Positions 691-29,582 of a DNA stretch of 29,582 nucleotides are shown one piece after another (positions within the stretch are counted from its first letter, which is position 1; each line of letters opens with the position of its first letter). The notes under the pieces are model-generated. The model ran no database searches and was not told where the DNA came from. It worked only from the letters and a program-made list of their open reading frames with translations. Both the position numbers and the translations under genes were made by a program. This DNA is from Chiloscyllium plagiosum (taxonomy: Eukaryota). The stretch is taken from positions 279,012 to 308,593 of the forward strand of contig NC_057754.1 of assembly GCF_004010195.1 (NCBI RefSeq). Direction: 5' to 3'.

Positions 691-1533
691 TATACTGAAA
701 AGAGATAGAGATCCTGCCTCCTGTTCCTACAGGCTTCCACAAATGGAAGCATCTTTTTCACACCTACCCTGCCAAACCTCTTAAGAATCTTGCATATTTC
801 AACAAGGTCTCCTCTCATTCTTCAAAGCTTCTAAAATGAGTACCCAACTCAACCTCCGCTCATAAGAAAATCCCTCCATGCCCTCCAACTTGGTGAACCT
901 TCTCTGGACTGACTGCAATGTCACTACACTTTTCCTTAGATAAGGGGTCCAAATGTCCACAATATGCCTTGCATAGCTTTAGCAAAACCTCCTTATTTTT
1001 GTCTTCCTTCAGTTTTTTTGTCTCTATTTTTATATTCCATACCCTCTGAAATAAAGTCCAACAGTCCATTTGCCTTCCTTATTACCCAATGAACTAGAAT
1101 ATTAACTTTTTGTGATGATGCAAAACCTCAGATTCCCACATTATATTCTATCTGCCAAGTTTCTGCCAGCACACTTAACCTATCCATATCCCTATGCAGA
1201 CGATGTCATCCTCTCTACTTGCCTTCACACCTATTTTTGTGACACGTATCTCAGTCTTTTGCACATTACCCATCCAAGTCATTAATATATACTGTACATA
1301 ATCGTGGCCCTGAGCATGCTCCCTGTGGCATTCTAATAGTTACAGGCTGCCATGCTACTGACACCACCTTTATTCCAACTCTGTCTTCTATTACCTTCAC
1401 TCTAATAGCTAGCAAGTTGTCTATCCATTCTGACTATACTATGTTCTCTTACCTTATGAAGTGGTCCCTTATCAAAGGTTTTTTAGAAATGCAAATATAT
1501 TCTACTGTGTCCTCTTTATCTATCCTACTTGTT

Positions 1534-1736
1534 GGGAGAAAGTGAGGATTGCAGACGCTGGAGATCAGAGTCAAAAAGTGTGGTGCTGGAAAAGCACAGT
1601 TGGTCAGGCAGCACCTGAGGAGGAGAGTCGACGTTGAGCATAATGCCCCTGAACAGCTCCTACTCAAAACATCGGCTCTCCTGCTCTTCGGATGCTGTTT
1701 GACTGGCTGTGCTTTTCCAGCACCACACTTTTTGAC
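1534..1736. mobile_element. Palindromic Penelope-terminus-derived mini-element with 15-bp TSD
   Basis: Perfect 33-bp inverted arms at 1567-1599 and 1707-1739, extending imperfectly toward the centre near 1645. Flanking direct repeat TCTATCCTACTTGTT (1519-1533) / TCTATCCTATTTGTT (1737-1751). Decayed hammerhead pieces at the centre. Confidence 0.85.
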
Positions 1737-2129
1737 TCTATCCTATTTGTTACCAACTTAAAGAATTCTAATAAACTTGTCAGGCACTATTTCCTCTTCA
1801 TGAAGCCACGTAGACAATACTCAATTACATTATGCATTTCTAAATGCTCTGCTATTACATCAGTTATAACAGATTAACGTTTCAGACCTTATGCTAACTG
1901 GCCCATAGTGACTTTTTTTATTTTGTCTCTTTTTTTTTGAAGTGAGTGACATTGACAACTTTCCAACTATCTGGGGCTTGATGACCACCAGTGCATTCAT
2001 TGGCTCCTTTAAAATGCTCGGATGCAACTTATCAGCACCATTGATTTACCAGCTTTCAGCAGAACAGGGCTCAACAAAAACTGATTTTTGGCAGGCAAGC
2101 AGAATCCAACAGAATAACTTGGCTGCCTC

Positions 2130-2360
2130 AAAGATTTGCATTTATATTGCAACTTTCAAGTCCTCACCATTCCAAAGCACCATAACCAGTGAAGAACTTT
2201 TTGAAATCTAGTCACTGCTGTAATATAGGAAATGTAGCATATAATTTGTACACAGCAAGCACCCACAAACAGCAACATGAGAATGAACCAGATCATCTGC
2301 ATTACTGAGGTTGGTTGAGGGACAAGCATTGCCCAAGACACTGGGAGAGCTCCCCTGCTG
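2130..2360 (-). mobile_element. DeuSINE (SacSINE1/AmnSINE1-like) 3' half
   Basis: Reverse complement reads CCCTCAACCAAC...CAGATGATCTGG...TTGCTGTTTGTGGGTGCTTGCTGTGTACAAATT...CATTTCCTATATTACAGCAGTGACT...TTCAAAAAGTTCTTCACTGG...TATAAATGCAAAT, i.e. the Deu domain plus tail. Confidence 0.8.
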
Positions 2361-3239
2361 AGTGAAGTTAAACTTGGAATCACCACCTCCTTCAACTCAC
2401 TGAACAGCAGCGAACATGCACTGAGCAGAAATCAAAACACTTCAAACATGGGAAAAAGACATTAACCCCAACAACAGCCACAAAGCTCACACCATGAGCC
2501 AAGCTCAGGAGACTAAATCTTACAGCAGCAATCAGCATGGAGGTCCCTCTGCCTTCTAACCTCACCTGAAGACATATAGAGAAAAATGCCAGCAGACTTT
2601 CACCACTCACTAACATCTTGTGCAAGTGATCATCCTTCTGGACTGCAAAGAATTAACAGATTCTTCAATCAAAAGACATGGCTCAGATAAATGCACAAAC
2701 ATTCAGATATTTTCATTTGCTGACAGCAAACAGGAGAGCAAATCCAGGGCAAGATTTCAACACTTCCTAAACCAGAGTCACTGAGGCTGTCCACCTCAGC
2801 AAACTCACAATGCAAAGTTTTCCTGTTCTGAACACCAGATGCACAATGATCAGCTAAGCTATTAGGAGCTCTGTGTTTTTTATATTCAGTCAGAGTCTAA
2901 CAAACAAGACAATTCTCATGGCTTCAGTCATGTAACTACCATCAAACAGATCTGAATCTGTCATCAATAAAATGCAATGGTCTGGTTAGTGTGCCAGCTG
3001 CTAGAGGAAGACACCAAGTGGGGCACAGCTCGAACGTAGGCAGTGTGTATTCTGCAGACAATGCTGTGATAACAGACCACGCAGATAGATGTATTTTTAG
3101 TCTTTTATGAAGTCTGACGCATGTATTAGCTGAAGAAAGAGTAACCTTTGAAGACGACAGGCAAAGTAGAGGAATCAGGGTAAATATCACTCCCTCTAGG
3201 CCTGGGATTTTAATCAGACACAATTAGACAGACCAGAGA

Positions 3240-3540
3240 TCACAGGAATGATTCACAGATTCTACATGGGAACAGGAGTCCATTCAACCCCTTGAGCTGG
3301 TTTTGTGATTCAATGTGATTATTGATCTGTAGTCTAATTCCACTTCATCTCATTCCCTTGATACCAGACACTGTCTGCCTGCCTGCCATCCAATCTTTTA
3401 GGGTATCTTCCAAATGCACCATAACCAATTTGCCCTTAAGATCTTCATAAATTCTCATCTTGAGATTTAAGCTACAAGTTCCAGAATAAAGTATTACACA
3501 TTCAAACTTAATGCAAAATTCTATCTTGGCCACCCTATAG
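3240..3540 (-). mobile_element. Highly decayed CR1 fragment (3'UTR joined to EN-RT linker)
   Basis: GGAGTCCATTCAACCCCTTGAGC is a CR1 3' end in reverse. ORF 3345-3533 (KIEFCIKFE...LNL...YEDLK...EDTLKD) resembles the CR1 ORF2 linker. Confidence 0.55.
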
Positions 3541-3689
3541 CCACTTTAAAGCAAGGGTGACTGGATGGAGATGAGCAACAGAAATTGTGTCTGATTCCCA
3601 CAATACATCCAGACACCAGCTGAGGTCAGCTAACAGCACAAGTGATTGAATCCGATCTGTGTTTGTTTCTATTTGTTCCTCAGAGTATT

Positions 3690-3870
3690 GGGGTTTCACT
3701 GACTTGATCCTCATTTATTGCCCATCCACTGCACTGGAGAAGGTGGAGGTGAGCTACCTTCTTGAACCACTGCAATCCACAGGCAATCCAATGTGGGAAG
3801 AGAGGGACTTCCAGAACTTTGATGCAGTGATACTGAAGGCACGGTGATATATTTCCAAGGCAAGAAGATG
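3690..3870 (-). mobile_element. Non-LTR retrotransposon 3' end fragment (shark LINE, clade uncertain)
   Basis: CATTTATTGCCCATCC...GAGAAGGTGGAGGTGAGCTACCTTCTTGAACCACTGCA...GATATATTTCCAAG, recognised from memory as an abundant chondrichthyan LINE terminus in reverse. Confidence 0.5.
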
Positions 3871-4089
3871 GGACCATGTCCCCACAAGGACTGTGCCATG
3901 AAGACTCATTTTAATACTGTCAGATTAGCTTGCGTAAAGATCCTTTTCCCCCCACTGCTTCTCTCACCTACTTACACCAGATTGAGTCCAGCAGCTGTGT
4001 CCTTTAAGAATTAAACAGCTTGGTGAATAGTAGATTGGGCCTGTATTCCCAGCAGTTTGGAAGAATGAAAGGGAATACAATTGAAATCT

Positions 4090-4680
4090 GATGCAGGAAT
4101 GATGTTTCCCCTGGCCAAGGGGCCACACTCTCAGAGCCACACTCTCAGAGGACAGGGTAGGCCATTTCAGACTGAGATGGAGAGATAGGTCTTCACTCAG
4201 TGGGTGGTGAATCTCTGGAACACTCAACCAAGTCACTGAACAGGAAAGGTTTAGAGGGATATGGGCCAAACACAGGCAAATGGGACAAGTTCAGTTTAGG
4301 AAACTTGGTCAGCATGCACAGGTTGAGTTGAAGGACCCGTTTCCATGCTCTTACTTCTATGTCTCTGTATATAAGAAACAAACAAAAGTTCCTAGAGGGT
4401 CGTGTTGAATAGCAAAATGGGCTCAATGGGTTGAATGACCTACTCCTGCTACTATCATCCGTGTTACTAAAGTGTAACAAGCTGCCTTTTAAAAAAAAAA
4501 TCAACATTGAGTCAAAGTAAAAAGGATGAGTGTATAGTCACATAAGCAAGGGAGTGAAAGTTCACTGGGAGTTGGCAGGAACATGGAGTCATCAGATCAG
4601 CCATGGTCTGATTGATGGTGGGACAGGCTTGAGAGGCCAAGCAGCCCATCCCTACTCGTAATTCATATGTTCCTATGTTA
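4090..4680 (+). mobile_element. Cluster of CR1 3'-end fragments (about 4090-4368, 4390-4460, 4520-4680)
   Basis: GGCCACACTCTCAGA...TTCACTCAGTGGGTGGTGAATCTCTGGAAC; tails GAAGGACCCGTTTCCATGCT, GAATGACCTACTCCTGCT and ATCAGATCAGCCATG...CCTACTCGTAATTCATATGTTCCTATGTT. Confidence 0.75.
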
Positions 4681-4689
4681 GTGAACAAA

Positions 4690-4862
4690 ACTCAGTCGAA
4701 GGAGGTTTCAAGAAGCATGTTGGAAATGGAAATAGGGCTCAGAGAACTGAAGCACAGCCACCGACGGGTGGAGCAATTTAAAATCAGGGAATACTCAAGG
4801 GACCAGAATCAGAGGAACACAAAGATCACAGAGGGCCAGAGGAGATAACACAAATAAGGTGA
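4690..4862 (-). mobile_element. L2 LINE 3' fragment
   Basis: AAAATCAGGGAATACTCAAGGGACCAGAATCAGAGGAACAC is homologous to 6953-6993. The reverse frame resembles the L2 RT C-terminal LRSS.SG.L.IP.F...GG.AFS segment. Confidence 0.6.
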
Positions 4863-5769
4863 ATTTTTCTATGCAATATCCAAAACAAGGCATTTATGAC
4901 ACAGCCAGACAATGAGTTGGCACGGGACTCCTCAATAAACATACAGAAAATTAGCAAGTGAAACATTGGCTCCGTGACTGAGATGATCTGGAGATGATCT
5001 TGATTGAGATCAGGCTGAAATCCTGAGTGCATTACTGCCCAGCAGCAGCTTGCTCCTAATTGGGCACACATAGTTTTCCAACTCCATGCTTGCTGCAGAG
5101 AACAGCAGGCAGGTTAGCACCTTTCCATGGCAGGGGCGGGGGGATCCCCTGACAGTTACTGATGCAACTTGTGGAACTGGGGGAAACAACAGCATTAAAC
5201 CAGATTGCTACACACAAATGGCAATAGTTTGCTTTCAGATGGAATGTGCAGAATAACCACTTCAGCAAAGGAAGAACATGGAGAATGGCCCAAAGATAGG
5301 ACAAATGGAGAAGTTACAAATGAACGTTGGAAAATAAAATCAGAAAGTTGGGAAGCTTGGAGCAAATTATTAATATATTAGAGAAATACTTAATGCTGTT
5401 GTGTTCCATACATTAACTGCTTGTTCACTGAACTATTTTAGAGGTAGAGACACTATCACTGCACTCAAGAGCCTATAAAAACAGGAACAAGTGCAGTTTA
5501 CGTTTCCACTCATCAACTATGTTAGAGGGAAAAAATGACCCAAGTTGCCCAGGACCACCTGACCTGCAGTAAAACCAATGTGTCTGGTCCCAACAATTCA
5601 AATGGGTAGATGCTGAAAGGTGAAAGTCCTGTCCAGTTTATCTCTCGTCACCCTGAGAGTTGCCTGATACAATGATATCGGAAGTGCTCAGTAAACAATG
5701 TCCAATTAATGAGTCTTCGACAGACACCGATGTGAAGCGAGGAAAAACCCCAGGCAGTGGACAGCTTTG

Positions 5770-6130
5770 AGAATCATCGGTCCAAAATTTCCTTTCCCTC
5801 TCTAGCTGACTCTATTCTCACACAATCAGGTTTCAAATTACTCCAGCCAATTTCCAAAATATTTTCTGAAAGAAATTCACTTAATTTACATTTGAAAGAA
5901 TCAATACCAACTGGTTCCACCGTCTCTCTTGGGAATTTGTTCCATATATTAAACACTTGGTCACCAAAATATTCCTTCGACAGCTCAGCTTTCAATTTGC
6001 CCCTTTCAAGCACAAACTGTGTTCACTCGATCTATTATACAGACAACGTTGAACTACTCAAGATGGTCAATGTAATTCAGTTCCTTTACAATCCTAAAAC
6101 TCCTCTCAACCTCGTCATTTCCAACTAGAT
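5770..6130 (-). mobile_element. Ancient CR1 ORF2 C-terminal fragment
   Basis: ORF 5774-6013 YFGDQVFNIWNKFPRETVEPVGIDSFKCKLSEFL matches the CR1 motif FF..RVV..WN.LP...V.A.....FK..LD.FL. Confidence 0.7.
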
Positions 6131-6542
6131 GTTAGCCAATCCACATAACTGCCCCTCAGAATTCAGTCTATGTTGTCTAGCTGATCACAGGCCACTTTGA
6201 GTTGTGTCTTGGACAGTTCTCGATGACTCCAATTCAGAAAAGCATACCAGGCATTGTCAGCACAACCCACTGTGATTAATCCAGAGGTGGAGATGACAAA
6301 CTGCCATCTGCATATGACAGAGAATCAAAATATTTAAAAGATCTGTGGCCTGGTTCCTGCTTTCCCTTGACAGTGCTCCCTCCCCTCAAGAAACTGATTC
6401 CCACTGGAGTTCTAGGATTCAAATTCTTCCCCTGGATACATTGAAGATTCAGAAAGATACAGCCGGGGAAGAATACATGTTAGCAGAGGAACATGTAGAT
6501 GAAGCTGCACCATTTACAGCATGCTTCTGTGAACGTTGGCAT

Positions 6543-6581
6543 GTTCCTTTTTATCCCTGCTAGTTCCTTTTTATCCCTGCT
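6543..6581. repeat. Perfect local tandem duplication (19-bp unit + 1-nt spacer)
   Basis: GTTCCTTTTTATCCCTGCT at 6543-6561 and 6563-6581. Confidence 0.95.
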
Positions 6582-6719
6582 CTGTGAAAAGCCACAGAAA
6601 TAGTTCCTGATGAAAATGTTAAAAGGCAAGCATGAGGTACTCTCACGACTGGTGATCTCTTCCTTCCTGTTTGCGCAACTATTCAGCAGGGTGAAGCTCC
6701 AAATACAGATCACAGTCCA

Positions 6720-7330
6720 ACAACAACAAGAATAACTTATAATTATATAGCATCCCTTCACATAATGAAACATTCCAAGACAATTCACAGCAGCACTATT
6801 AGACAAAATATGATACTATGTCACATAAAGAGACAGCCTGGACAAAGTAGTCAGTTTGAGAGAGCATCTTAGAGAAGGAAAGTGAAGTAGAATAGTTTTG
6901 ACAGTTGAGAGCCCATGCAGCTGAATTCACGTTTGTCAGTAGTGAGGCTACTAAAATTGAGGATACTCAAGAGGCCAGAGTTGAAGAAGCACAGTTCTCG
7001 GTGTGTCGTAAGTGCTGTAGAAAGTTACAGAAATAGAGAGGAGTGAGGACACAGAGGATTTGAAAGTAGGGATTAGAATTTTAGAATCAAGACATTGCTT
7101 GACCAGGAACTGATGTAGGTCAGTGAGCACACAGGTAATAGGGGATACTGCGTGGTTTAGTCACAGCTAGAAATCAAGGAGGAAAGAGTGAAGGTTTCAG
7201 CCAATGACCCGAGGTAGGGGTGAAGCTGAACAATATCAGTGTGGTAAAAATTGTGAAGTGAGAAAACGAGATCAGTGACTCATTTTGAGGTCAGATACAG
7301 AACCAATGTTGAGAAGAATATTCCTAATAT
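6720..7330 (-). mobile_element. L2 LINE 3' portion (RT C-terminus + 3'UTR)
   Basis: Reverse complement of about 7030-7145 encodes a decayed ITCVLTDLHQFLVKQCLDSKILI..FK...SPLYF, matching the L2 motif HITPVL..LHWLPV..RI.FKIL. Ends in GGATGCTATATAATTATAAGT plus (TTG)n. Confidence 0.72.
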
Positions 7331-7371
7331 TTAATTAGAGGACATTTCAGCATTTCAATATGGGACTTTGA

Positions 7372-7442
7372 TGAGCAGGTGGGAATTGAACTCAAGCTCC
7401 TGGCTCAGAGGTAGGGACACTACCACAGCACCATAAAATCCT
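7372..7442 (-). mobile_element. tRNA-derived SINE head fragment
   Basis: Reverse complement TGGTGCTGTGGTAGTGTCCCTACCTCTGAGCCAGGAGCTTGAGTTCAATTCCCACC has A-box-like and B-box-like motifs but no full cloverleaf. Confidence 0.6.
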
Positions 7443-8659: not shown

Positions 8660-9038
8660 ACAAGAACATTGAACAGTACAGCACAGTACAGTCCCTCGAT
8701 GTTGTGCCAGTCTTTTATCCTACTCTACGATCAGACTAACCGGCATACCTTTCATGTGCACATCTTACATGTTGCTGATCCAAAAGTCACTTAAACGTTC
8801 CTAACACATCTGATTCTACTACCACTGCTGGCAGTACATTCCATGCAACCACCACTCTGTAAAGAACCTCCCTCTGACATCTCCCCTAAACCTTACTCTG
8901 ATTACCTTAAAATTACGCCCCCTCGTGATAGACATTTCCACCATGGGAAAAAAAGTCTCTGGCTATCCACTTTAACTATGCCGCTCAACATCTTGTACAC
9001 TTCTATCAAGTCACCTGTCATCCTTCTTCGTTCCAATG
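8660..9038 (-). mobile_element. CR1 LINE 3' end
   Basis: GAACATTGAACAGTACAGCAC tail in reverse; CATTCCATGCAACCACCACTCTG (RVV..WN); ACATCTTGTACACTTCTATCAAGTCACC (GDLIEVYKM). Confidence 0.8.
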
Positions 9039-9182
9039 GCTGAACGCTTGTCCAGTACTCACACTCTCCATTCAGGACTCCTATCTCTTTCCTCCAGTTA
9101 GCTCAGTGTTCCAACACTGCTTCAATCCCAGGGCTGCTCCAGCCCTTCATACAATGCCAACTTCCTTCCTAAAGAGACTGCT

Positions 9183-9337: not shown

Positions 9338-9349
9338 CCACCACCCTGT

Positions 9350-9590
9350 CAGCGATTGTTCAGTGGGTAGAACATCTGCCTTCAAATTCGAAAATTGAGA
9401 GTTAAGTCTCAGTCTAGAATCTGCAGCACATAATCCAGGCTGACACTAACAGTGCAGGACTAAGGAAGTGCTGTACTTTCAGAGGAGCTGCGTTTTAATG
9501 AATAATGCTTATTCTTACAAATGGAGATAAAATATCCCACAGAGAGAGAAAGGGACTTCTTCCAGTGTCCTAAACCAATATTTATCCCTT
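9350..9590 (+). mobile_element. DeuSINE (SacSINE1-like) 5' half, truncated at the Gypsy fragment
   Basis: Decayed tRNA head (TCAGTGGGTAG...GAGTTAAGTC), CACATAATCCAGGCTGACACT...AGTGCTG...CAGTGTCCTAAACCAATATTTATCCCT. Homologous to the reverse complement of 11930-12150. Confidence 0.7.
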
Positions 9591-9591
9591 T

Positions 9592-10320
9592 AAATGCTGA
9601 AGCCTTCTGTATTTCATTTGAAAAATTGGCTAGGTAGATGGAGTGGTCTAAGGATTTAAGGGTAATGCTAGTTCCGACTAAACTGGTAGGCAGTTTAATA
9701 GCTAGTGAAGTATTTGCTGCACTGTCAGATGAGGTGTCAAGAGATTATGAAGACGGTTAAACAGGCTATTTTAACTGCTTATGAATTGGTACCAGAAACA
9801 TATAGACAATGGTTCAGAAACACGAATAAGGAACTAGGTCAGACTTATGTTGAGTTCGAAAGAATTAAAGGTAGTCGCTTTAATCGATGGGTACATGCTT
9901 TGAAAATAGATAAGAAGTTTGAGACTCTAAGTGAGATTATTCTGCTGGAGAGTTTTAAAAACTCACATGGTAAGAACTCGTGTGGAGGAACAGAAAGTTC
10001 ATGAAGTGAGAAGGACAGCAGAATTAGCAGACGAGTACATGTTGGTGCATAAGACAAGCTTTTAATTTTGTCCTGTGAAGGATAGAAATTGGCAGAAAGG
10101 GAGATCCTACACTACTAAACCAAGAGTAGATCGCACTGATAAGAATTTACCACAGAATAAAAAAGAAGCCCAAGAGGGTGGAAAGGAGGTGAAAAGCTTC
10201 TCATGTTTCTGCTGTGGTAAAGTGGGACACGTAAAGTCACAGTGCCAGTCATTAAAGAAAGGCGCGGTGGGAAAAGATGTGGTAAAAGAAGCTAAGCCAG
10301 TGGCATTAGTGAAGGTAGTA
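9592..10320 (+). mobile_element. Gypsy LTR-retrotransposon gag fragment (Gmr1-like, SCAN-related capsid + CCHC zinc knuckle), frameshifted
   Basis: EAFCISFEKLA..MEW...KLVG..ASEVFAALSDEVSRDYE / VKQAILTAYELVPETYRQWFRN...LSEIILLESF; zinc knuckle CFCCGKVGHVKSQC at 10204-10245. Confidence 0.82.
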
Positions 10321-10490
10321 CAGAACTGCAGCCTCACAGCGCCAGGGACCCGAATTCGATTCCAGCCTCAGGCATCTGTGTGGAGTTTACACATTCTCCC
10401 CGTATCTGCATGGGTTTCCTCTGGGTGATCCAGTTTCCTCCCACAATCCAAAGATGTGAAGGTTAGGCGAATTGGCTATGCTAGATTGTC

Positions 10491-10583
10491 GCTGAAAATG
10501 TGTTGCTGGAAAAGCACAGCAGGCCAGGTAGCATCCAAGGAACAGGAGAATCGACGTTTCGGGCATGAGCCCTTCTTCAGAAA
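10491..10583 (-). mobile_element. 93-bp Penelope-terminus mini-insert with perfect 16-bp TSD
   Basis: GCTATGCTAGATTGTC at 10475-10490 and 10584-10599. The insert is nearly identical to 29495-29579. Confidence 0.9.
10553..10580 (-). ncRNA. Minimal hammerhead ribozyme core (Penelope-type, short palindromic stem III)
   Basis: Minus strand CUGAAGA-A-GGGC(UCAU)GCCC-GAA-ACGU-C: all core residues present. The native 5' strand of stem I was lost at the insertion junction. Confidence 0.65.
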
Positions 10584-10829
10584 GCTATGCTAGATTGTCT
10601 CAGTGTTCAGGGATGTGTAGGTTAGGGGTAAATGTAGAGTAATGGGGAATGGCTTTAGGTAGGATACTCTTTGGAAGGTCGGTATGGACTTGCGGGCCGA
10701 AGGGCCTGCTTCCATGCTGTAAGGGATTCTAATTCTAAAGAAACATACAGTAAATTTTTAAAGCAGTCCCGACTGCAGTCACAACTAATCAGGAAGTTAC
10801 TATGGGAAATAGACTAACAACAAGCAGAC

Positions 10830-13107: not shown

Positions 13108-13259
13108 ACCAAAATGGAAATTGCTGAAGAAACTCAGCTAGTCTAGCAACATCTTCAGTTCTGAAGGAGGATCACTGGACTCAAAACAGTAACTCTGCTT
13201 TTTCTCCACAGATGCTGCCAGACCTGCTGAGTTCCTCCAGCAATTTCTGTTTTTGTTTG
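13108..13259 (+). mobile_element. Partly palindromic Penelope-terminus mini-element (second subfamily) with decayed hammerhead
   Basis: Inverted arms GAAATTGCTGAAGAAACTCAGC / GCTGAGTTCCTCCAGCAATTTC. AGTT-CTGAAGGA-GGATC(ACTG)GACTC-AAAACAGT-AACT at 13157-13194 keeps stem I (AGTT/AACT) but has a mutated core. Confidence 0.7.
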
Positions 13260-15317: not shown

Positions 15318-17073
15318 CAGGGTGTGAAAGGGGAGAAAGGGAGGGAAGTTAAGAAACATATAAAGTTAAAAGAGAAAAAATATAACATAGCAAAGATAAG
15401 TGGGAAAACTGAGGACTGGGAGGTTTTAAAAGAGCAACAGAGGATTACTAAGAAGGAAATACGCAGAGGAAAAATGAGGTACGAAGGTAAACTGGCCAAT
15501 AATATTAAGGAGGATAGTAAAAGCTTTTTTAGGTATGTGCAAGGCAAAAAAATGGTTAGGACAAAAATTGGGCCCTTGAAGACAGAAACAGGGGAATATA
15601 TTACTAGGAACAAAGAAATGGCAGAGGAATTAAATGGGTACTTCAGATCTGTGTTCACTGGGGAAGACACAAGCAATCTCCCTGAGGTAACAGTGACTGA
15701 AGGACCTGAACTTAAGGGAATCTATATTTGCCAGGATTTGGTGTTGGAGAAACTGTTAGGTCTGAAGGTTGATAAGCCTCCGGGGCCTGATGGTCTGCAT
15801 CCCAGGATACTGAAGGAGGTGGCTCGGGAAATCGTGGATGATTATTTGGTGATTATTTTCCAGAGTTCAATAGATTCCGGGTCGGTTCCCGAGGATTGGA
15901 GGGTGGCTAATGTTATAACCTGGACTTTCAGAAATCTTTTGATAAAGTCCCACACAGGTGGTTAGTGAGTAAAATTAGGGTGCATGGTATTGGGGGCAAA
16001 GTACTAGATTGGATTGAAAATTGGTTGGCTGATAGGAAACAAAGGGTAGTTATAAACGGCTCCATTTCGGAATGGCAGGCCGTGACCAGTGGGGTACCGC
16101 AGGGATCTGAGCTGGGACCGCAGCTTTTTACAATATATGTTAATGATATAGAAGATGGTATTAGTAATAACATTAGCAAATTTGCTGATGATACAAAGCT
16201 GGGTGGCAGGGTGAAATGTGATGAGGATGTTAGGAGATTACAGGGTGACCTGGACAAGTTAGGTGAGTGGGCAGATGCATGGCAGATGCAATTTAATGTA
16301 GATAAATGTATGGTTATCCACTTTGATGGCAAGAACAGGAAGGCAATTTACTAACTCAATGGAATCAATTTAGGTAAAGGGGCAATACAGAGAGATCTGG
16401 GTGTTCTTGTATACCAGTCAATGAAGGCAAGCATGCAGGTCTTCATAACAAGAGGAATTGAGTAGAGAAGCAAAGAGGTGCTTCTGCAGCTGTACAGGGC
16501 CCTGGTGAGACCACACCTGGAGTAGTGTGTGCAGTTCTGGTCTCCAAATTTGAGGAAAGACATTCTGGCTATTGAGGGAGTGCAGTGTAGGTTCACGAGG
16601 TCAATTCCTAGAATGGCGGGATTACCTTACACTGAAAGACTGAAGCGACTGGGCTTGTATACCCTTGAGTTTAGAAGACTGAGAGGGGATCTGATTGAGA
16701 CATATAAGATTATGAAAGGATTGGATACTCTGGCAGCAGGAAACATGTTTCCGCTGATGGGGGAGTGCCGAACCAGAGGACACAGCTTAAAAATATAGGG
16801 TAGACCATTTAGAACTCAGATGAGGAGAAGCTTCATCACCCAGAGAGTGGTGGCTGTGTGGAATGCTCTGCCCCAGAGGGCAGTGGAGGCCCAGTCTCTG
16901 GATTCATTTAAGAAAGAGTTGAATAGAGCTCTCAAGGATAGTGGAATCAAGGGTTATGGGGATAAGGCAGGAACAGAATACTGATTAGGAATGATCAGCC
17001 ATGATCATATTGAATGGCGGTGCAGGCTCGAAGGGCTGAATGGCCTACTCCTGCACCTATTGTCTATTGTCTA
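15318..17073 (+). mobile_element. Younger 5'-truncated CR1 LINE (ORF2 RT pseudogene + 3'UTR)
   Basis: ORFs 15324-15965, 15965-16354 (SGVPQGS, KFADDTK) and 16529-16798; internal deletions at about 15917 and 16440; tail (CTATTGT)n. Confidence 0.93.
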
Positions 17074-18012
17074 AGATCTTGTAAAGCTGCAGGCTCAAGC
17101 CCTGACAGACTATACCCCAAGGTCTTAAAGGAAGTGACAAATGAGAAAGCTATTGCATTGGTTTTAATTTTCCAAAATTTCCTGGATTTGGGAATGTCAC
17201 ATCAGTTTGTAAGAAAGCAAACTTAATTACTCTGTTCAAAAAGGGAGACAGAAAGCACAATATCACAGGGAAGATGTTCGAAGCTATTATGAAATAATTA
17301 TGAGATGAAAAATAAAGGAAAAGTTCAAGGTAATCAGGCACAGTCAACATGATTCTGGAACAAGGAAATCTTGTTTAACCAACCTACTGCAGTTTTTGAG
17401 GAAGTAATGTGTGCTCTGGATGGGGGTGGGGGGGAAAAAGAAGAATCAGTATGTCATTTAATACAGATCCACAAATGATATTGTGGAAAATAAAAGCACA
17501 TGCTGTAGAAGGTAACCCCATTTTTGTATGGATAAAAATTTGACCTGTGAACAGGAAGCAGACAGCAAGCATATATGGGTCATTTTCAGTTTGGTAAGAT
17601 GCAACAAGTGATGTCCCACAGGATGGTTATGGAGCTTCTGCATTCTTACCATTTACATAAATGACTTAGATGAAGGGCAGAAGGAATTTGATGAGGTAAA
17701 GATTGGGAGGAAAATACACCATAAGGAGGACAGAAAGAGTTTACAAAAAGACACAGATAGGTAAGTGAATGGACAAGATTTGAGAAATGGAGTACAATAT
17801 GGTTGAATGTGTAAGTGCCCATTTTGACAACAAGAATAAAAGTACATTATTTAAATGAAGAGAGATTGCAGATTTCAGAGATACAGAAGAGGAAGGCTAT
17901 TCTTCAGTCATACAGGGTACTGGTGAAACAGAGTCTGGACTACCATGAACTGTATTGGTCTAAGAGAGAATGTATAAATATTTTGGAGGCAGCTCAGAGA
18001 AGGTTTACCATA

Positions 18013-20848
18013 GGTTGAGAGTAGGGAGGTCCGAAATCAAGTTTCAGGGACACAAGATGGCACCGGCAAGCACTTGGTTTGAAGTGTGTCTACTTCAACA
18101 CCAGGAACATTAAAATAAGGTGGGTGAATTTGCAGCATGGGTTGGTACCTGGGACTTCGATGTTGTGGCCATTTCGCAGACATGGATAGAGCAGGGACAG
18201 GAATGGTTGTTGCAAGTTCCAGGATTTAGATGTTTAGTAAGAACAGAGAAGATGGCAAAAGTGGGGGAGGTGTGGCATTGTTGGTCAAGGACAGTATTAC
18301 AGTTGCAGAAAGGATGTTTAGGGTCTTGTCAACTGAGGTAGTATGGGCCGAGGTTAGAAACAGAAAAGGAGAGGTCACCCTGTTGGGAGTTTTCTATCGG
18401 CCTCCGAATAGCTCCAGAGATGTACAGGGAAAGGATAGCAAAGATGATTCTCGATAGGAGTGAGAGAGACAGGGTAGTTGTCATGGGGGACTTCAACTTT
18501 CCAAATATTGACTGGGAACACTACAGTACAAGTACTATAGATGGGTCAGTTTTTGTCCAGTGTGTGCAGGAGAGCTGCCTGCCCCTTGTTGGCCAGAATG
18601 TAGACTGGCCAACAAGGGGCGAAGCCACATTAGATTTGGTACTGGGTAATGAGCCTGGCCAGGTGTTAGACTTGGAAGTAGGTGAGCACTTTGGTGATAG
18701 CGATCACAATTCTGTTATGTTTACTTTAGTGATAGAAAGGGATAGGTGTATACCACTGGGCAAGAGTTCCAGCTGGGGGAAAGGCAATCATCATGCAATT
18801 AGGCAAGATTTAGGAAACATAGGATGGGGAAGGAAACTGCAGGAGTTGGGCACATTAGAAATGTGGAGCTTATTCAAGGAAAAGCTCCTGTGTGTCCTCG
18901 ATTAGTATGTACCTGTCAGGCAGGGAGGAAGCTGTACAGCGCCGTGGTTTACGAAGGAAGTGGAATCTCTGGTCAAGAGGAAGGCGGCGGCTTATGTTAG
19001 GATGAGATGTGAAGGCTCAGTTAGGGCGCTTGAGGGTTACAAGGTAGCCAGGAAAGACCTAAAGAGAGGGCTCAGAAGAGCCAAGAGGAAACATGAGAAG
19101 TTGTTGGTGGATAGGATCAGGGTAAACCCTAAGGCTTTCTATAGGTATTTAAGGAATAAAAGAATGATGAGAGTAAGATTAGGGCCAATCAAGGATAGTA
19201 GTGGGAAGTTGTGTGTGGAGTCAGAGGAGATAGGGGAAGCACGAAATGAATATTTTTCGACAGTATTCACTCTAGAAAACGACAATGTTGTCGAAGAGAA
19301 TACTGAGATACAGGCTACTAGACTAGGTGGGATTGAGGTTCACAAGGAAGAGGTATTAGAAACCCTGCAGAGTGTAAAAATAGTCAAGTCCCTTGGGCCA
19401 GATGGGATTTATCCTAGGATCCTCTGGAAAGCCAGGGAGGAGATTGCCGAGCCTTTGGCATTGATCTTTAAATCATCATTGTCTACAGGAATAGTGCCAG
19501 AAGACTGGAGGATAGCAAATGTGGTTCCCCTGTTCAAGAAGGGGAGTAGAGACAACCCAGGTAATTATAGACCAGTGAGTCTTACTTCAGTTGTTGGCAA
19601 AGTGTTGGAAAAGGTTATAAGTGATAGGATTCATAATCACCTGGAAAAGAATAATTTGATTAGGGATAGTCAGCATGGTTTTGTAAAGGGTAAGTCGTGC
19701 CTCACAAACCTTATTGAGTTCTTTGAGAAGGTGACCAAACAGGTAGGTGAGAGTAAACCGGTTGATGTGGTGCATATGGATTTCAGCAAGGCGTTCAATA
19801 AGGTTCCCCACAATAGGCTATTGTACAAAATGCGGAAGAATGGAATTGTGGGAGATATGGCAGTTTGGATCAGTAATTGGCTTGCTGAAAGACGACAGAG
19901 GGTGGTGGTTGATGGGAAGTGTCTATCCTGGAGTCCAGTTACTAGTGGTGTACCGCAAGGGTCAGTGTTGGGTCCACTGCTGTTCGTCATTTTTATAAAT
20001 GACCTGGATGAGGGCGTAGAAGGGTGGGTTACTAAATTTGCAGACGACACTAAGGTCAGTGGAGTTGTGGATAGTGACGAAGGATGTTGTAGGTGATTCA
20101 CTTTGGTCGGAGTAACTGGAATGCAAAGTACTGGGCTAATGGTAAGATTCTTGGTAGTGTAGATGAGCAGAGAGATCTCGGTGTCCATGTACACAGATCC
20201 TTGAAAGTTGCCACCCAGGTTGACAGGGTTGTTAAGAAGGCATACAGTATTTTAGCTTTTATTAATAGAGGGATCAAGTTCCAGAACCATGAGGTTATGC
20301 TGCAGCTGTACAAAACTCTGGTGCGGCCGCACTTGGAGTATTGTGTACAGTTCTGGTCACCGCATTATAAGGAGGATGTGGAAGCTTTGGAAATGGTGCA
20401 GAGGAGATTTATCAGGACATTGCCTGGTATGGAGGGAAGGTCTTATGAGGAAAAGCTGAGGGACTTGAGGCTGTTTTCGTTAGAGAGAAGAAGGTTGACT
20501 TAATAGAGACATATAAGATAATCAGAGGGTTAGATAGGGTGGACAGGGAGAGCCTTTTACCAAATATAGTGACGGCGAGCACGAGGGGGCATAGCTTTAA
20601 ATTGAGGGGTGATAGATACAGGACAGATGTCAGAGGTAGTTTCTTTACTCAGAGTAGTAAGGGTATGGAATGCTTTGCCTGCAACGGTAGTAGAGTCGCC
20701 AACTTTAAGTACATTTAAGTCATTATTGGACAAGCATATGGACGTACATGGAAAAGTGTAGGTTTGATGGGCTTCAGATTGGTATGACAGGTCTGCAACA
20801 TTGAGGGCCGAAGGGCCTGTACTGCGCTGTGATGTTCTATGTTCTATA
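18013..20848 (+). mobile_element. Younger CR1 LINE with nearly complete ORF2 (APE endonuclease + RT), frameshifted
   Basis: GGGVALLVK, GVFYRPP, MGDFN, LDLVL, SDHN (EN); ORF 18960-20096 has [33 protein letters not shown] (RT); tail (ATGTTCT)n; ATA duplicated at 18010-18012 and 20846-20848. Confidence 0.95.
18960..20096 (+). pseudogene. CR1 reverse transcriptase domain (378-aa open stretch of a broken ORF2)
   Basis: Core RT motifs are present, but there is an upstream stop at 18903-18905 and a frameshifting deletion at about 20093. Confidence 0.9.
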
Positions 20849-23059: not shown

Positions 23060-24319
23060 TTAGATGAGAATATAGAAGGCATGGTTAGTAAGTTTGCAGA
23101 TGACATCAAGTTTGGTGGTATAATGCACAGTGAAGAAGGTTATCGACAATTACAAAGAGATTTTGATCAATTGGGTCAATGGGCTGAGCACTGGCAGATG
23201 GAGTTTAGATTAGATTCCATACAGTATGGAAACATGCCATTTGGCCTGACAAGACCACACCGGCCCTCCGAAGAGTAAAACACGCAAAGCCATTCCCCTA
23301 CATTTACCCCTGACTAATGCACTTAACACTATGAGCAATTTAGCATGGCAAATTCACACTAACCTGCACATCTTTGGATTGTGGGAGGAAATCAGAACAC
23401 CCGGAGGAAACCCACGCAGACACGGGGAGAATGTGCACACTCCACACAGACAGTGGCCCGAGGGTGGAATCGAACCCACGGCGCGGACAGGCAGCAATGC
23501 TAACCACTGAGCCACCATGCCACCCAATTTGCAATTTGGACAAATGCAAAGTATTGCATTTTGGTAAAACAAACAAAGGCAGGATTTATACAATTAAAAG
23601 TAGGGCCTTGAGCAGTGTTGTAGAACAGTGAGATCTAGGGGTTCAGGTACATAACTCTTTGAAGTTTGCATCACCTATAGATGGGTGATTAAGGCAGCAC
23701 TAAGAACACTTGCTTTTATTGCTCACACCTTTCAGTATGGAAGTTAGGATGTCATATTGAGGTTGTACAGGACGTTGGTGAGACCTTGCCTTGAATACTA
23801 TGTCCAGTTCGGGATGCCCTGCTATAGGAAGAATACGATTAAGCTGAAGAGGGATCAGAAGAGATTTACCAGGATATTGCTCGGAACGGAGGTTTGAGTA
23901 ATGGGGAGAGGCTGGGACTTGTTTCACTGGAGCATAGGAGGTTGAGAGGTGACCTTATAGAGATTTATAAAATAACGAGAGGTACAGATGAGGTGAATGG
24001 CAGGTATCCTTTCCCTAGGGTGGGGAATTTCAAGACTAAGGGGCATATTTAAAGTGAGAGGAGAAAGATTTAAAGACGAGGGGCAAACTTTTTTTACACC
24101 AAGTGTGGTTCGAGTGTGGAATGTACTGCCAGAAGAAATAGTGGATGAGAGTACATTTACAATGGTTAAAAGATATTTAACTAAGTACATGAATAGGAAA
24201 GGTTTGGAGGGATATGGGCCAAATGCAGACAGATTGGACTAGTTTAGTTTGGGATTATGGTCAGCATGGACTAGTTGGACTGAATGGTCTGTTTCCGTAC
24301 TGTCTAATTATGAATGCAT
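23060..24319 (+). mobile_element. 5'-truncated CR1 LINE, interrupted by an antisense V-SINE
   Basis: MVSKFADDIKFGG...WQMEF | NLDKCKVLHFGK; FFTPSVVRVWNVLP; tail GGACTGAATGGTCTGTTTCCGTACTGT. Confidence 0.9.
23207..23525 (-). mobile_element. HE1-like V-SINE
   Basis: Reverse complement starts GGGTGGCATGGTGGCTCAGTGGTTAGCATTGCTGCC, with B box GGTTCGATTCC, V domain and (AATCT)n tail; homologous to 379-690. Confidence 0.9.
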
Positions 24320-25623
24320 AAACCATTTCCCGGCTATGATTTGTCACTTGCCTCCCAAACAACAATCCAGTTTGGAAATCAACTCTGTCTTCAAACCTTC
24401 CAAAGTGCAGTTCTCTGCCAGCCTATTGAGGTCATTTCAATAACATTTCCATGCTTTCGCCTGGCCTTTGCTTCTGTCAATTAAACTTTGCCCGTTCAAA
24501 ATTTAAATTCTGACAAACAAGGAAATGCAAGTCAAATGCATAGAACGCTCCTTCAGAGGAAGCTGTAGTCTCATCAACTCCCTTGCTAACACCTTATTAG
24601 CAATACTGCCCACTGTAATGTACTAACCTGGCATCCCCTATTTAAGTTTGAAGCAGTTCAGTACCTGGTGAACCTTGTCTTCCATTCCTAGGCCTGGTGT
24701 GGTCCTTAAATTGCCTGGCATGTTTCTAGAAATGCCGGATTAGCTTCCACGCTTCCCCTGAAACCTCGAGTTCTCCTTACACTGCCCCACCATTCGCAGC
24801 TTTGAGTCTTTGCGAACAGCGGTTCTATCGTGGGCATTGCTTTCTAGCTCACTGCTACTGCTCCTGTACAATTTTCCCAACATCTTAGTAAATTCTGTCA
24901 CTTCCTCTTAATTGCCTTACCTTCAAGGTTCTGTTGGTTTTGCCATTTATTTTGGCCTCCTCCAATACCTCCGTATTATCTATGAATGCTTCAGATATTA
25001 AACTTATTATAACCGCCCCCTCCCCCCAAGTCTTTGTCCCAATCATATTCGAACTCTATTCACTTGATACATCAGTGGTTCAACTAGAAGGCAAGTAAAA
25101 GATAAGCACTAAATACTGGCATTACCAGTGACAGAATGGATTTTAAACATACATGCATCATTCAAGCTTATAAAAATCACTCACGTAAGATTAACTGTGA
25201 TTTGCAGCAAACACCATGAGGCACTCAGTGATTAATCCTTAGGCATAGTCACTTGGGGTGCTGGGACTTCCTGTCATTATTTAATGGTCCATCCTCAGCA
25301 AATAAAAGCTTATGATTAACCATTCTCAACTGCATACACACAGAGTCTTCACTGCACGTGGGCAGGTCATGAACTACAACATACATAGTTATTGCCACAA
25401 GAGCCAGCCTCTAGCACCTACTTACATATTCTGTGCTCTTTTGTAGAAACCAGGCATTGGATTTCATTAAAATATTCTTAGTTTGTTCTTTTGACATTGA
25501 TCCAAACACCAGTTGCTCTTCTGTAATGCATCAATTAACTACGAGCGTGCGTATCTCCCAGCTAATATACCATATAAGGCGACACTGTGAAGGGCCCTCC
25601 ATTCCATCACCCCCTGCACAAGG

Positions 25624-27245
25624 CCATAAGACAAAGGAGCAGAAGTAGGCCAATTGGCCCAGTTTGGCCTGCTATTTCATAAAACGGCTCATCTGATAAT
25701 CCTCAACTCCATTTTCCTGCTTTTTTGCCATAGCCCTTTATTTCCTTACTGATTAAAAATCTTATCAATCGCAGCCTTGATTGTCGTTAATGGCCCAGCC
25801 TTGACTGCAGTCTGCAGTATATAATTCCACAGATTCACTACCCTCTGGGAGAAGGAATTCCTCATCTCTGTCTTAAATGGGTGACCCCCTTATTCGGAGA
25901 CCACACCATTGGTCATATACTCTCCCAGAAGGTGAAACAAAACTCTACACCTGTCAAGCCCCCAAGATTCTTGTATGTTTCACTAAGGTCTCCTCTCATT
26001 CTTGTAAGCTCTAACGAGTACCAAGTCCAAGCTACTCAACCTCAGAAGAAAATTCCTCCACATCTGGTATCAGCATATTGAACCTTCTCTGGACTGTCTC
26101 CAATATCAGGACATCTTTCCATAGATAATGGTCCCAAAACCATTCAGAGGATTCTACCTTGGTCTGACTCGCATTTTGTATAGTTTTAGCACAACCTTTC
26201 TATTTTTATACACTTTGAAATAAGATCCAAAATTCCATTTGTCTTTCTTATTACCCACTGAATTTGGATGCTGGCTTTTTGACATTGATGCATAAGGACC
26301 CCCCAAATGCCTTTGTACTGCAGCTTTCTGTAGTTTTCCTCCTCCCCACCACTGAAATAATAGTCAACTCTTCTATTCTTCCTGCATAAGTGCAGAGTCT
26401 CACTTTTTCCATTCTAATGCATCCGCCAATTTTTTGCCAAATCAATTCATCTGTCTATACCCCTCTGTCGACTCTGTTATAGAGTCAGAGAGATGTACAG
26501 CATGGAAACAGACCCTTCGGTCCAACCTGTCCATGTCGAACAGATATCCCAACCCAATCTAGTCCCACCTGCCAGCACCCGGCCCATATCCCTCCAAATC
26601 CTTCCTATTCATATAGCCATCCAAATACCTCTTAACTGTTGCAATTGTACCAGCCTCCACCACTTCCTCTGGCAGCTCATTCCATACACGTACCACCCAC
26701 TGCGTGAAAACGTTGCCTCTTAGGTCTCTTTTAGACCTTTCCACTCACACCCTAAACCTATGCCCTCTAATTCTGGACTCCCCGGCCCCAGCGAAAAGAC
26801 TTTGTCTATTTATCCTATCCATGCCCTTCATAATTTTGTAAACCTCTATTAGGTCACCCCTCAGCCTCCGACACTCCAGGGCGATTTCTACTTATCTTCC
26901 CACCTATTTTTGTCTCGCCTGCAAATCTGGCGATATTACATTCATGGTTCTCATTCAAGTCACGAATAAGTATTCTACGTTATGGTGGCCCCAGCATGAA
27001 TCTGGGGCATGCTACTAGTTATAGACTGCCACCCTGACAGTCTAATTGTAACCCTGTCTTCTATTAGTTATCCAGTTCTCTATCCATGCCAATGTTCTCT
27101 CTCATTGCACTGTTTAATAACAGTATGTGCAGTGTCCTATTGAATGCCTTTTGGAAATCCAAATACACCTCATCAACTGGCTTCCCTTTATCAATCCTGC
27201 TTGCTCCCTCCTTAAAAGGCCCGAACAAATTTGGCAAACAGGTGT
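25624..27245 (-). mobile_element. Old CR1 LINE (RT C-half + 3'UTR), interrupted by a younger CR1 at 26479-26880
   Basis: CCATAAGACAAAGGAGCAGAAGTAGGCC tail in reverse; the reverse complement of about 27140-27180 encodes VDEVYLDFQKAFNR; same family as 209-1910. Confidence 0.8.
26479..26880 (-). mobile_element. Young CR1 3' end
   Basis: ORF 26559-26744 RGNVFTQWVVRVWNELPEEVVEAGTIATVKRYLDGYMNRK; tail GGACCGAAGGGTCTGTTTCCATGCTGTAC. Confidence 0.9.
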
Positions 27246-27507
27246 GAAAGAAGTTGGAGTCACTACATAAGAAAGAGGAGAAGCCATTTTTTTTTGTCTA
27301 CCTGCAGCCCCTGACCCTGAGGCTCAAAATAATGTGGCCTTTCCCCAATTAACTCCACAAAAATAACTGAGAACATCTTCAGGTTGCTATAAGGACTGAC
27401 CTGTTTCATTAACACTTGACAGCGAAGGCAGCTATTCACCTCTGCCTGCACTGACACTGTCCTACATTACACGAGCTACTCAACAATCACTTCAGATCTT
27501 CCATCAT

Positions 27508-28677
27508 CTGGATGTAGGTTTGCTCACTGAGCTGGAAGGTTCATTTCCAGACGTTTCATCACCCTCATAGGTAACATCTTCAGTGGGCCTCAGGCGAAGC
27601 ACTGTACATTGACTCCTACATTCTATTTGTGTGTTTGGGTTTATTTGAGTTGGTGAAGTCATTTCCTGTGGTGATGTCATTTCTTGTCCTTTTTCTCAGG
27701 GAGTGGTAGATGGGGTCTAACTCGATGTGTTTGTTGATAGACTTCCGGTTGGAATGCCATGCTTCTAGGAATTCTCGTGCGTGTCTCTGCTTGGCTTGTC
27801 CTAAGGTAGATGTGTAATCCCAGTCGAAGTGGTGTCCTTCCTTATCTGTATGTAAGGATACTAGTGAGAGAGGGTCATGTCGTTTTGTGACTAGTTGATG
27901 TTCATGTATCCTGGTGGCTAGTTTTCTACCTGTTTGTCCAATGTAGTGCTTTTTACAGTTCTTGCACGGTATTTTGTAAATGATATTAGTTTTGCTTGGT
28001 ATCTGTATAGGGTCTTTCAAGTTCATTAGCTGCTGTTTTACTGTGTTGGTGGGTTTGTGGGCTACCATGATGCCCAGGGGTCTGAGTAGTCTGGCAGTCA
28101 TTTCAGAGATGTCTTTGATGTAGGGGAGAGTCGCTAGGGTTTCTGGATGCGTTTTATCTGCTTGTTTGGGTTTGTTGCTGAGAAATCAGCGGACTCTGTT
28201 CATTGGGTATCCATTCTTTTTGAATACACTGTATAGGTGATTTTCCTCTGCTCTGCGTAGGTCCTCTGGGCTGCAGTGTGTGTTGGCTCATCAAAATAAT
28301 GTTCTGATGCAGCTTGGTTTGTGAACGTTGGGATAACTGCTTTGCAGTTCAGTATTTGGTCTGTATGTATTGTTTGCCTGTAGATGCTGGTTTGAAGTTC
28401 CCCATTGGCTGTGCGATCTGCTGCAACGTCTAGGAGTGGCAGTTTGTTGTTGTTTTTCTCCTCTTTAGTGAATTTTATGCCAGTAAGGGTATTATTGATG
28501 GTCTTGAAGGTTTCCTCTAATTTGTTTCGTTTAGTGATGACAAAGGTGTCATCCACGTAGCAGACCCAAAGCTTGGGATGGATGGTTGGCAGGGCTGTTT
28601 GTTGAGTCTCTGCATAACTGCCTCTGCTAAGAACCCGGATATCGGAGAACCCATGGATGTTCCGTTGGTTTGTCTGC
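27508..28677 (-). mobile_element. Penelope-like element (Poseidon-like): RT C-half + GIY-YIG endonuclease + 3' end with hammerhead; pseudogenised
   Basis: RT GTSMGSPIS, LWVCYVDDTF, IKFTKE, LPLLDV; EN NIIYKIPCKNCKKHYIGQTGRKLATRIHEH...REFLEAWH...INKH (ORF 27616-28101). Confidence 0.93.
27547..27586 (-). ncRNA. Minimal type I hammerhead ribozyme in the Penelope 3' terminus
   Basis: Minus strand CCA-CUGAAGA-U-GUUACC(UAUGAG)GGUGAU-GAA-ACGU-C|UGG: stem I CCA/UGG, stem II 6 bp with 2 G.U pairs, palindromic ACGU stem III. Predicted cut between 27550 and 27549. Confidence 0.75.
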
Positions 28678-28812
28678 AAGTACCATGCAAGAACTGTAAC
28701 AAACACTACATTGGACAAACAGGCAGAATACTAGCCACCAGGATAGATGAACACCAACTAGCCACAAAACAACATGACCCTCTCTCACTAGTATCCTTAC
28801 ATACAGATAAGG
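28678..28812 (+). mobile_element. Inverted partial copy of the Penelope GIY-YIG region
   Basis: PCKNCNKHYIGQTGRILATRIDEHQL; reverse complement of about 27840-27972, with about 9 substitutions counted by eye. Confidence 0.9.
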
Positions 28813-29494
28813 GATAGCATTACAGCTGTGCTGAGGGAGGATATTCCCGGAAATACATCCAGGGAAGTTATTTGGGTGGAACTGAGAAATAAGAAAGGGA
28901 TGGTCACCTTATTTAGATTGTATTATAGACCCCCCAGTAGTCAGAGGGAAATTGAGAAACAAACTTGGAAGGAGATCTCAGCTATCTGTAAGAATAATAG
29001 GGTAGTTATGGTAGGGGATTTTAACTTTCCAAGCATCGACTGGGGCTGCCATAGTGTTAAAGGTTTAGATGGAGAGGAATTTCTTAAGTGTGCACAAGAC
29101 AATTTTCTGATTCAGTATGTGAATGTACCTACTAGAGAAGGTGCAAAACTTGACCTATTCTTGGGAAACAAGGCAGGGCAGGTGACTGAGGTGTCAGTGG
29201 GGGAGCACTTTGGGGCCAGCGACCATAATTCTATTCGTTTTAAAGTAGTGATGGAAAAGGATAGACCAGGTCTAAAAGTTGATGTTCTAAATTGGAGAAA
29301 GGCCAATTTTGACGGTATTAGGCAAGAACTTTCGAAAGCCAATTGGAGGCAGATGTTCGCAGGTAAAGGGACGGCTGGAAAATGGGAAGCCTTCAGAAAT
29401 GAGATAACAAGAATCCAGAGAAAGTACATTCCTGTCAAGGTGAAAGGGAAGGCTGGTAGGTATAGGGAATGCTGGATGACTAAAGAAATTGAGG
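28810..29494 (+). mobile_element. CR1 ORF2 endonuclease region (5'-truncated, open frame)
   Basis: ORF 28828-29571: IWVELRN, LYYRPP, VGDFNFP, LDLFL, SDHN, WMTKEIE. Confidence 0.92.
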
Positions 29495-29582
29495 TGAAAA
29501 ATGTGTTGCTGGAAAAGCGCAGCAGGTCAGGCAGCATCCAAGGAGCAGGAGAATCGACGTTTCGGGCATAAGCCCTTCTCCT
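29495..29582 (-). mobile_element. Penelope-terminus mini-insert with partial hammerhead, running off the window edge
   Basis: Near-identical to 10494-10577. Minus strand AGAA-GGGC(UUAU)GCCC-GAAACGUC (29556-29579), with CUGA replaced at a junction. Confidence 0.85.

Follow-up and report, generated by a model that had tools for sequence, protein, structure and literature searches.

Penelope-like retroelements (PLEs) are known to be inserted in truncated form, to carry inverted pseudo-long terminal repeats (pLTRs) and tails, and to contain minimal hammerhead ribozymes (PMC8557442, PMC3846280, PMC4209133, PMC8969392). In an in vitro system based on an anole PLE, two internal priming sites bound the tail, both target strands are cut and extended, and uncleaved RNA is used as template (PMC11167929). 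The formation of PLE inverted repeats, tails and pLTRs, and the role of the hammerhead, have been described as open questions (PMC8557442, PMC11167929). The present study concerns a stretch of 29,582 nucleotides (nt) from Chiloscyllium plagiosum (assembly GCF_004010195.1, contig NC_057754.1, positions 279,012 to 308,593 of the forward strand), referred to as the window, in which an initial annotation had described four small inserts that break or invert at the 5' edge of a hammerhead. To judge from their sequence, the inserts are the hammerhead-bearing ends of Neptune-type PLEs. Related copies elsewhere in the genome have a sharp hot spot of 5' ends at this point, which is probably a capped transcription start, so that the mini-copies would be run-off reverse transcripts; the ribozyme fold is probably not the cause of the pile-up. 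A search of the open literature, not extending to closed literature or repeat databases, brought up no earlier description of a hot spot for 5' ends, a start site or a cap-derived G at a PLE hammerhead.

Distribution of 5' ends

Positions are counted from the A that opens hammerhead stem I, which lies four bases ahead of CUGA and is designated +1; cleavage is predicted after +32, downstream of GUC. Copies were collected from 158 stretches of 10 kb (1.58 Mb) at fixed positions in the 45 largest contigs of the 3.56-Gb genome; the stretches were chosen without regard to the motif, and the queries were tail-only, with no hammerhead required. The 279 arms obtained included 30 that the filter assigned to family C (by eye, a small number of these are probably A/B), 9 units of a tandem tail array and 15 arms adjoining N or a stretch edge, all of which were removed. 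The ends of the other 225 were placed by alignment to 42 natural copies of families A and B that read through the motif, cut to 200 nt, with an arm's own locus excluded; breakpoints of family C were read by eye only. The hazard is expressed as ends per nt among the arms at risk.

The 5' ends of 72 of the 225 arms lie within 4 nt of +1 (−4 to +4), so that the sharp peak predicted by the initial annotation at the hammerhead 5' edge is present. The hazard per nt is 0.098 at +1 to +4 and 0.081 at −4 to −1; it declines downstream to 0.031 at +5 to +12, 0.011 at +13 to +22 and 0.005 at +23 to +32 (0.005–0.008 over +23 to +45), and upstream to 0.020 at −10 to −5 and 0.004–0.009 beyond −10. The flat distribution that had been named as contrary evidence is therefore not what was found, a hazard of 0.08–0.10 per nt within 4 nt of +1 standing against about 0.005 elsewhere. 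The cleavage site itself has no peak, only 10 of the 225 arms having their end at +30 to +36. Counted per insertion, 99 of 171 end at −7 to +14, 42 upstream and 30 downstream of this zone, and the peak persists when solo copies, palindromes or the 109 arms with the least divergence are considered separately. The density of about 111 insertions per Mb extrapolates to approximately 4 x 10^5 family A/B insertions, over half of them ending near +1. Among RNA reads and contigs, three of four runs have +1 exactly as the most common loose end, and depth climbs steeply at +1; it should be noted that these ends come from host transcripts carrying inserts and so confirm the breakpoint, as opposed to marking transcription starts.

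Structure of the palindromes

The sample contains 52 palindromes, in agreement with the reproducible class of short hairpin elements that had been proposed, and the several sequence subfamilies suspected to be involved are represented by A/B, C1 and C2. Tail ends cluster at about 58–68 and 97–103 nt after cleavage. One long-tail arm is combined with one short-tail arm in 48 of the 52 palindromes (two long in 1, two short in 3), and the solo arms comprise 66 long and 66 short. Target duplications are present in 36 of 52 palindromes compared with 2 of 152 controls and are 10–19 nt in length, with a mode of 15–16. The junction between the arms is distinct in 49 of 52 palindromes and contains an overlap of 1–4 nt or a short filler; two junctions recur (3 and 2 times), with 2–3 nt of microhomology. 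Each palindrome was thus made anew at insertion.

A narrow size range (median about 213 bp), terminal inverted arms and the two recurrent junctions might suggest that the palindromes are miniature inverted-repeat transposable elements (MITEs), or progeny resembling short interspersed nuclear elements (SINEs), of one or two masters. Such an origin was raised in the initial annotation as an outcome that would contradict it. However, the variable duplications, distinct junctions and unequal tails indicate that the palindromes are not MITEs: in place of a fixed short target duplication there are duplications of 10–19 nt in 36 of 52, in place of a shared master structure there are 49 distinct junctions among 52, the ends are unequal in 48, and even the recurrent junctions have microhomology. 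Descent from master copies is therefore largely refuted and can be given almost no probability. Non-LTR retrozymes (LTR, long terminal repeat) were likewise rejected as a class assignment; the pairs are head-to-head, not head-to-tail, and the arms that end at +30 to +36 are the few noted above.

Several individual inserts have additional features. In L147 (2268-2730, − strand), about ten 44-nt tail units (about +35 to +87) lie in tandem inside one palindromic insertion, for which repeated template jumps are possible. In L004, L184 near 5552 and L189 near 4561, a 35-nt tail alone is inverted ahead of a short-tail sense arm, and the control rows used below (base before +5) also hold inserts of this type; they correspond to a non-overlapping twin-priming product, which explains the appearance of a tail at either end. 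In L010, L104 near 5058 and L172 near 940, a filler at the 5' junction derives from the first 15 nt of the element itself, which suggests slippage during joining.

Promoter geometry and the extra G

TATA and initiator consensus motifs were used for comparison with the sequence around +1. In the 42 A/B read-through copies, which had been picked for ATTC, TTTATCT starts at −29 to −33 in 38, with a variable spacer, and YYANWYY is found at +1 in 32. Family C1 has ATAAAA near −30 together with TCAGTT (178 matches), and family C2 has TATAAATA at −31/−32 (543 matches). The predicted TATA/initiator geometry is canonical in C1 and C2 but only TATA-like in A/B.

Exact matches to family A were counted genome-wide, with G at −2 excluded. 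Immediately before +1 they have G in 2992 copies, A in 1058 and T in 860, a 4.0-fold excess of G over base composition, in a local background that is A/T-rich. The base before +5, used as a control, is G in 249 and A in 224 (Fisher p = 1e-20), and approximately 40 of the first 100 control G rows represent, by eye, microhomology with the inverted arm. The corresponding counts before +1 in family C1 are G 541 and A 271. In L009 and L010, the G is located in filler between the target duplication and the element. Untemplated G residues in long interspersed nuclear element 1 (LINE-1, L1) and SVA have been attributed to copying of the cap (PMC3287187, PMC4859970).

Where an element is complete at the 5' end, the tail leads into the open reading frame (ORF; L236, L239, L241), which has its ATG at +19 in stem II. 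Among 20 loci taken upstream of the N-terminal part of the ORF, five retain a whole or partial 5' hammerhead; two of these start at −4 and +2 (L236 and L239, respectively), two read through and one starts inside. None of the older long copies examined reached a 5' junction.

Origin of the hot spot

Since the peak coincides to the nucleotide with the first base of stem I, one explanation is that the hammerhead fold, a dimer or a bound protein stalls the reverse transcriptase (RT), or forces it to switch template, at the 5' edge; minimal hammerheads are thought to act as dimers (PMC4209133), and PLE protein helps hammerheads to fold (PMC11167929). A block would, however, be expected on the 3' side of the fold, yet the hazard at +23 to +45 is at its low level; an enzyme moving 3' to 5' would meet the fold at +33 to +36 and would have unwound it by +1. 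The Poseidon PLEs, which have a similar ribozyme, provide a comparison: only 3 of 20 arms break within 15 nt of CUGA and 17 read beyond −30, whereas 136 of 180 A/B arms that reach the same zone break there (p = 1.5e-7). That most Poseidon copies read through argues against the fold as the cause, and stalling leaves unexplained both the box at −31 and the excess of G at +1 but not at +5. We consider stalling unlikely; the initial annotation had proposed that either the fold or an RNA end adjacent to it fixes the breakpoints, and it is the RNA end that is favored.

The RNA end need not be a cap site. An uncapped processed end or a splice-related end, whether a 3' splice site or a branch point, would fit the pyrimidine tract and the AG at +1/+2 of C1 and C2, and the CTCAT at +1 of family A presumably fits the branch-point consensus. 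In Drosophila virilis Penelope, the intron likewise stops where helix I begins (PMC4209133). Against this, A/B, the family in which the peak was measured, has AT rather than AG at +1/+2, the listed flanks have by eye no common upstream exon before +1, and a box at −31 suits a promoter and not a branch point, so that a processed or spliced end also has a low probability. In a further scheme, proposed in PMC3846280, self-priming on an antisense template would build the palindromes, and +1 would be the 3' end of an antisense RNA. The head-to-head geometry follows directly from this scheme (PMC3846280), and the A/B motif is TATA-like on the other strand, but it predicts neither solo copies that share this end, nor the fillers present at many of the junctions, nor an extra G on the sense strand, and internal priming on the sense strand has been demonstrated in vitro (PMC11167929). 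It appears quite improbable.

Several observations weigh against a capped start at +1 itself. The number of arms that end at −4 to −1 (24 of 225) is greater than a single sharp start predicts, although chance matching accounts for some of them (L043). The box of A/B departs from the canonical form and reads on the opposite strand as a GATA-type motif, and the selection of the reference copies for ATTC inflates the A/B initiator count. No G excess is found in the small random sample (G 8 and A 7 at +1, and G 7 and A 14 among solo copies near the peak), roughly 10 of the first 100 family C1 rows with G appear, by eye, to have had the inverted arm as template, and the extra G could also arise from cap-independent terminal addition of C. 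The RNA data, with raw reads from a single-cell poly(A) run and libraries that are not of the 5'-end type, contain no piled-up molecule starts or adapter at +1. Finally, a TATA box is present 47–53 nt before CUGA in 10 of 21 listed Poseidon copies, and the read-through of 17 of 20 arms despite this box implies that run-off mini-copies are not a general outcome for PLEs. Two Poseidon copies, L060 near 1471 (− strand) and L187 near 8015 (− strand), begin at or just before the TATA box (−47 and −56 from CUGA).

From the observed ends, tails, duplications, junctions, motif spacing and G excess, we infer a capped start at +1, run-off, strand-specific use of priming sites, and head-to-head joining or loss of the products. 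RNA would begin at +1 under the direction of a TATA or TATA-like box and initiator in the 3'-terminal part of a PLE unit, expression being driven from the upstream unit as, in outline, in Drosophila Penelope. The predicted hammerhead would fill the first 36 nt of this RNA, the ATG in its stem II being that of the ORF. Priming by the enzyme of the element would be internal, at about +95 and +131, two sites that are suggested by the tail ends and by analogy with the anole PLE; as these sites are also near the mRNA's own 5' end, synthesis would run off after about 95–130 nt, and the cap may often be copied as an extra G. The two target strands would be cut 10–19 nt apart, one being primed at the far site and the other at the near site, and the two cDNAs would be joined head-to-head through microhomology of 1–4 nt or short fillers to give hairpins of roughly 140–270 bp, whereas loss of one cDNA would give a solo copy. 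Long copies would require tandem RNA primed in its second unit. One RNA or two may serve a palindrome; compared with the best arm from another locus, paired arms are more alike in 2 cases, equal in 10 and less alike in 40, a comparison that is uninformative on this point because the maximum is taken over many copies.

The hammerhead would therefore mark the hot spot because the first bases of the RNA lie in it, not because the enzyme stops there, and the mini-copies, with neither promoter nor ORF, would be dead on arrival. We lean, by a small degree, toward the fuller proposition that in these Neptune families a capped mRNA opens with the 36 nt of the hammerhead and that the enzyme, as a result of internal priming, in most cases reverse-transcribes no more than the extreme 5' end of this mRNA together with its cap, far and near priming being obligatorily paired on the two target strands. 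If this is true, several hundred thousand dead hairpins record the start site, a 15–16-nt cut stagger and the joining step for the retroelement class that is least understood, and full-length transposition has a built-in brake. The in vivo counts constrain the PLE mechanism: they point to a template that is uncleaved at GUC and terminates at +1, and to the use of different priming sites on the two strands. A large class of hairpin repeats of shark-like genomes, otherwise liable to be misfiled as MITEs, would also be explained, and such inserts enter host transcripts as double-stranded stems.

Inserts in the window and their identity

Self-comparison of the window identifies six hammerhead-type arms from related families, plus one Poseidon copy (Table 1). 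By themselves the four cases first described provide weak support for the hot spot, and there are counter-examples in the window, the copies at 1-200 and 27497-28812, which read through their hammerheads. Insert 2 does end 3 nt before CUGA, as had been described. Of the claim that all four inserts break at the hammerhead edge, what holds is that two arms start there. In palindrome 3 the inversion is at 13154/13155 and the right arm is as described, but the left arm begins elsewhere; because that arm starts near +54, the statement that breakpoints lie upstream of GUC fails for it, although the corollary that the inserts are not cleavage-to-cleavage monomers is sustained. The boundaries assigned to palindrome 1 are correct, but at its center, near 1647-1650, the arms start inside the core and not at the edge (+17 and +9 by alignment, about +13 and +4 by eye).

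Table 1. Positions of PLE-derived inserts and copies in the window
Feature	Position	Strand	Remarks
Palindrome 1, left target-site duplication, 15 nt	1519..1533	+	1 mismatch vs 1737-1751
Palindrome 1, long-tail arm	1534..1647	-	starts inside hammerhead stem II, about +13 to +17
Palindrome 1, short-tail arm	1648..1736	+	starts in decayed core, about +4 to +9
Palindrome 1, right target-site duplication	1737..1751	+	pairs with 1519-1533
Insert 2, target-site duplication, 16 nt	10475..10490	+	exact match to 10584-10599
Insert 2, solo mini-copy, family A, +2 to short-tail end	10491..10583	-	intact minimal hammerhead core, predicted, 10580-10553
Insert 2, second target-site duplication	10584..10599	+	identical to 10475-10490
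Palindrome 3, inverted arm, family C, tail only	13108..13154	-	starts near +54, past the predicted cleavage site
Palindrome 3, sense arm, family C	13155..13259	+	starts at -2, initiator-like TCAGTT; aligned to read-through copy L158
Insert 4, family A arm, short tail	29495..29579	-	match stops at +9, only 3 window bases beyond
Long Neptune-type copy, 3' end	1..200	+	reads through hammerhead (core 119-145); extends ~2 kb leftward
Poseidon-type PLE fragment	27497..28812	-	reads through hammerhead (27583-27549); internal inversion 28678-28812

The assignment to Neptune-type PLEs draws on their long relatives. RT motifs are found in L007, L021 and L231 (RVT_1 E 0.001, below the cut-off), and GIY-YIG-like endonuclease (EN) motifs were recognized by eye in L032, with no Pfam match there. 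A Cys-rich linker between RT and EN is represented by CxxxxCxxC in L032 (8951-9244), and the leftward extension of the copy at 1-200 passes, by eye, through such a linker and GIY-YIG-like motifs, again with no Pfam match. The linker is common to Neptune and Nematis (PMC8557442), so that the clade name is a putative one. The predicted pLTR hammerhead is of the minimal type I by core pattern and is followed by a tail of 30–40 nt that runs on into the ORF. An Rfam scan of the window gave no match at E ≤ 1, the minimal hammerhead being identified through the core pattern, and single-strand fold prediction recovers stem II only. In the Poseidon fragment, the GIY-YIG domain (PF01541) has an E of 0.0015, below the curated cut-off. 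Family C2 has the core UUGACAA (L115 near 4830, and genome-wide), in which a U3-A8 pair replaces C3-G8, with 543 exact matches with a TATA box; U3-A8 covariation has been reported for Schistosoma PLEs (PMC4209133).

Insert 4 is located inside the last of several long fragments at 15340-17075, 18040-20830 and 28840-29494, which we take to be LINE-like (CR1/L2-type). Insert 2 landed in what is presumably a tRNA-type SINE (10322-10735), and a fragment at 9560-10320 presumably represents an LTR-retrotransposon gag with a zinc knuckle. The tail at about +68 to +87 (for example 10503-10525, − strand) contains CTGAC, a pyrimidine run and CAG and resembles a branch point with a 3' splice site; through this stretch the mini-inserts might supply host genes with splice acceptors.

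Comparison with known systems

The inserts resemble the insertion units of EN-containing (EN+) PLEs of the Neptune and Penelope/Poseidon clades in having a hammerhead in the terminal repeat, a tail at one end (30–40 bp in the known units), head-to-head inversion, variable duplications and the start of the ORF in the repeat (PMC8557442, PMC3846280, PMC4209133). However, truncation in the EN+ units is described as variable, whereas over half of the present copies end near one base; the mini-copies are little more than hammerhead and tail, unlike the units described, and the mode of their duplications is 15–16 nt as compared with 8–10 nt in the rotifer examples. The Poseidon element PAc of Anolis shares an ATG in stem II, two internal priming sites, extension of both strands and an uncleaved template (PMC11167929). 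It belongs to a different clade, though, and the parts of the study consulted report neither a genomic 5'-end hot spot nor a cap-derived G nor an obligatory long/short pairing, its start site being the same on both strands (PMC11167929), in contrast to the 48 of 52 palindromes here.

Full-length LINE-1 inserts and twin priming are similar in the extra G at the 5' junction, in inversion from two primers and in microhomology at joints (PMC3287187, PMC4859970), but in L1 priming takes place on poly(A) and there is no overlap between the two cDNAs, whereas here both arms usually copy the same 60–95 nt. Non-LTR retrozymes are, like the mini-copies, short, hammerhead-bearing and derived from the PLE pLTR, but they are head-to-tail tandems bounded by self-cleavage, whereas the mini-copies, either solo or paired head-to-head, extend across the cleavage site (bioRxiv 10.64898/2026.07.22.740005). 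The closest parallel for the proposed transcription is D. virilis Penelope, in which the 3' untranslated region of the upstream unit drives the downstream unit (PMC2377424). There the internal promoter lacks a TATA box, and the start precedes the hammerhead by about 120 nt and one intron (PMC2377424); in the present elements, RNA is predicted to begin at the hammerhead itself, with the box upstream of it.

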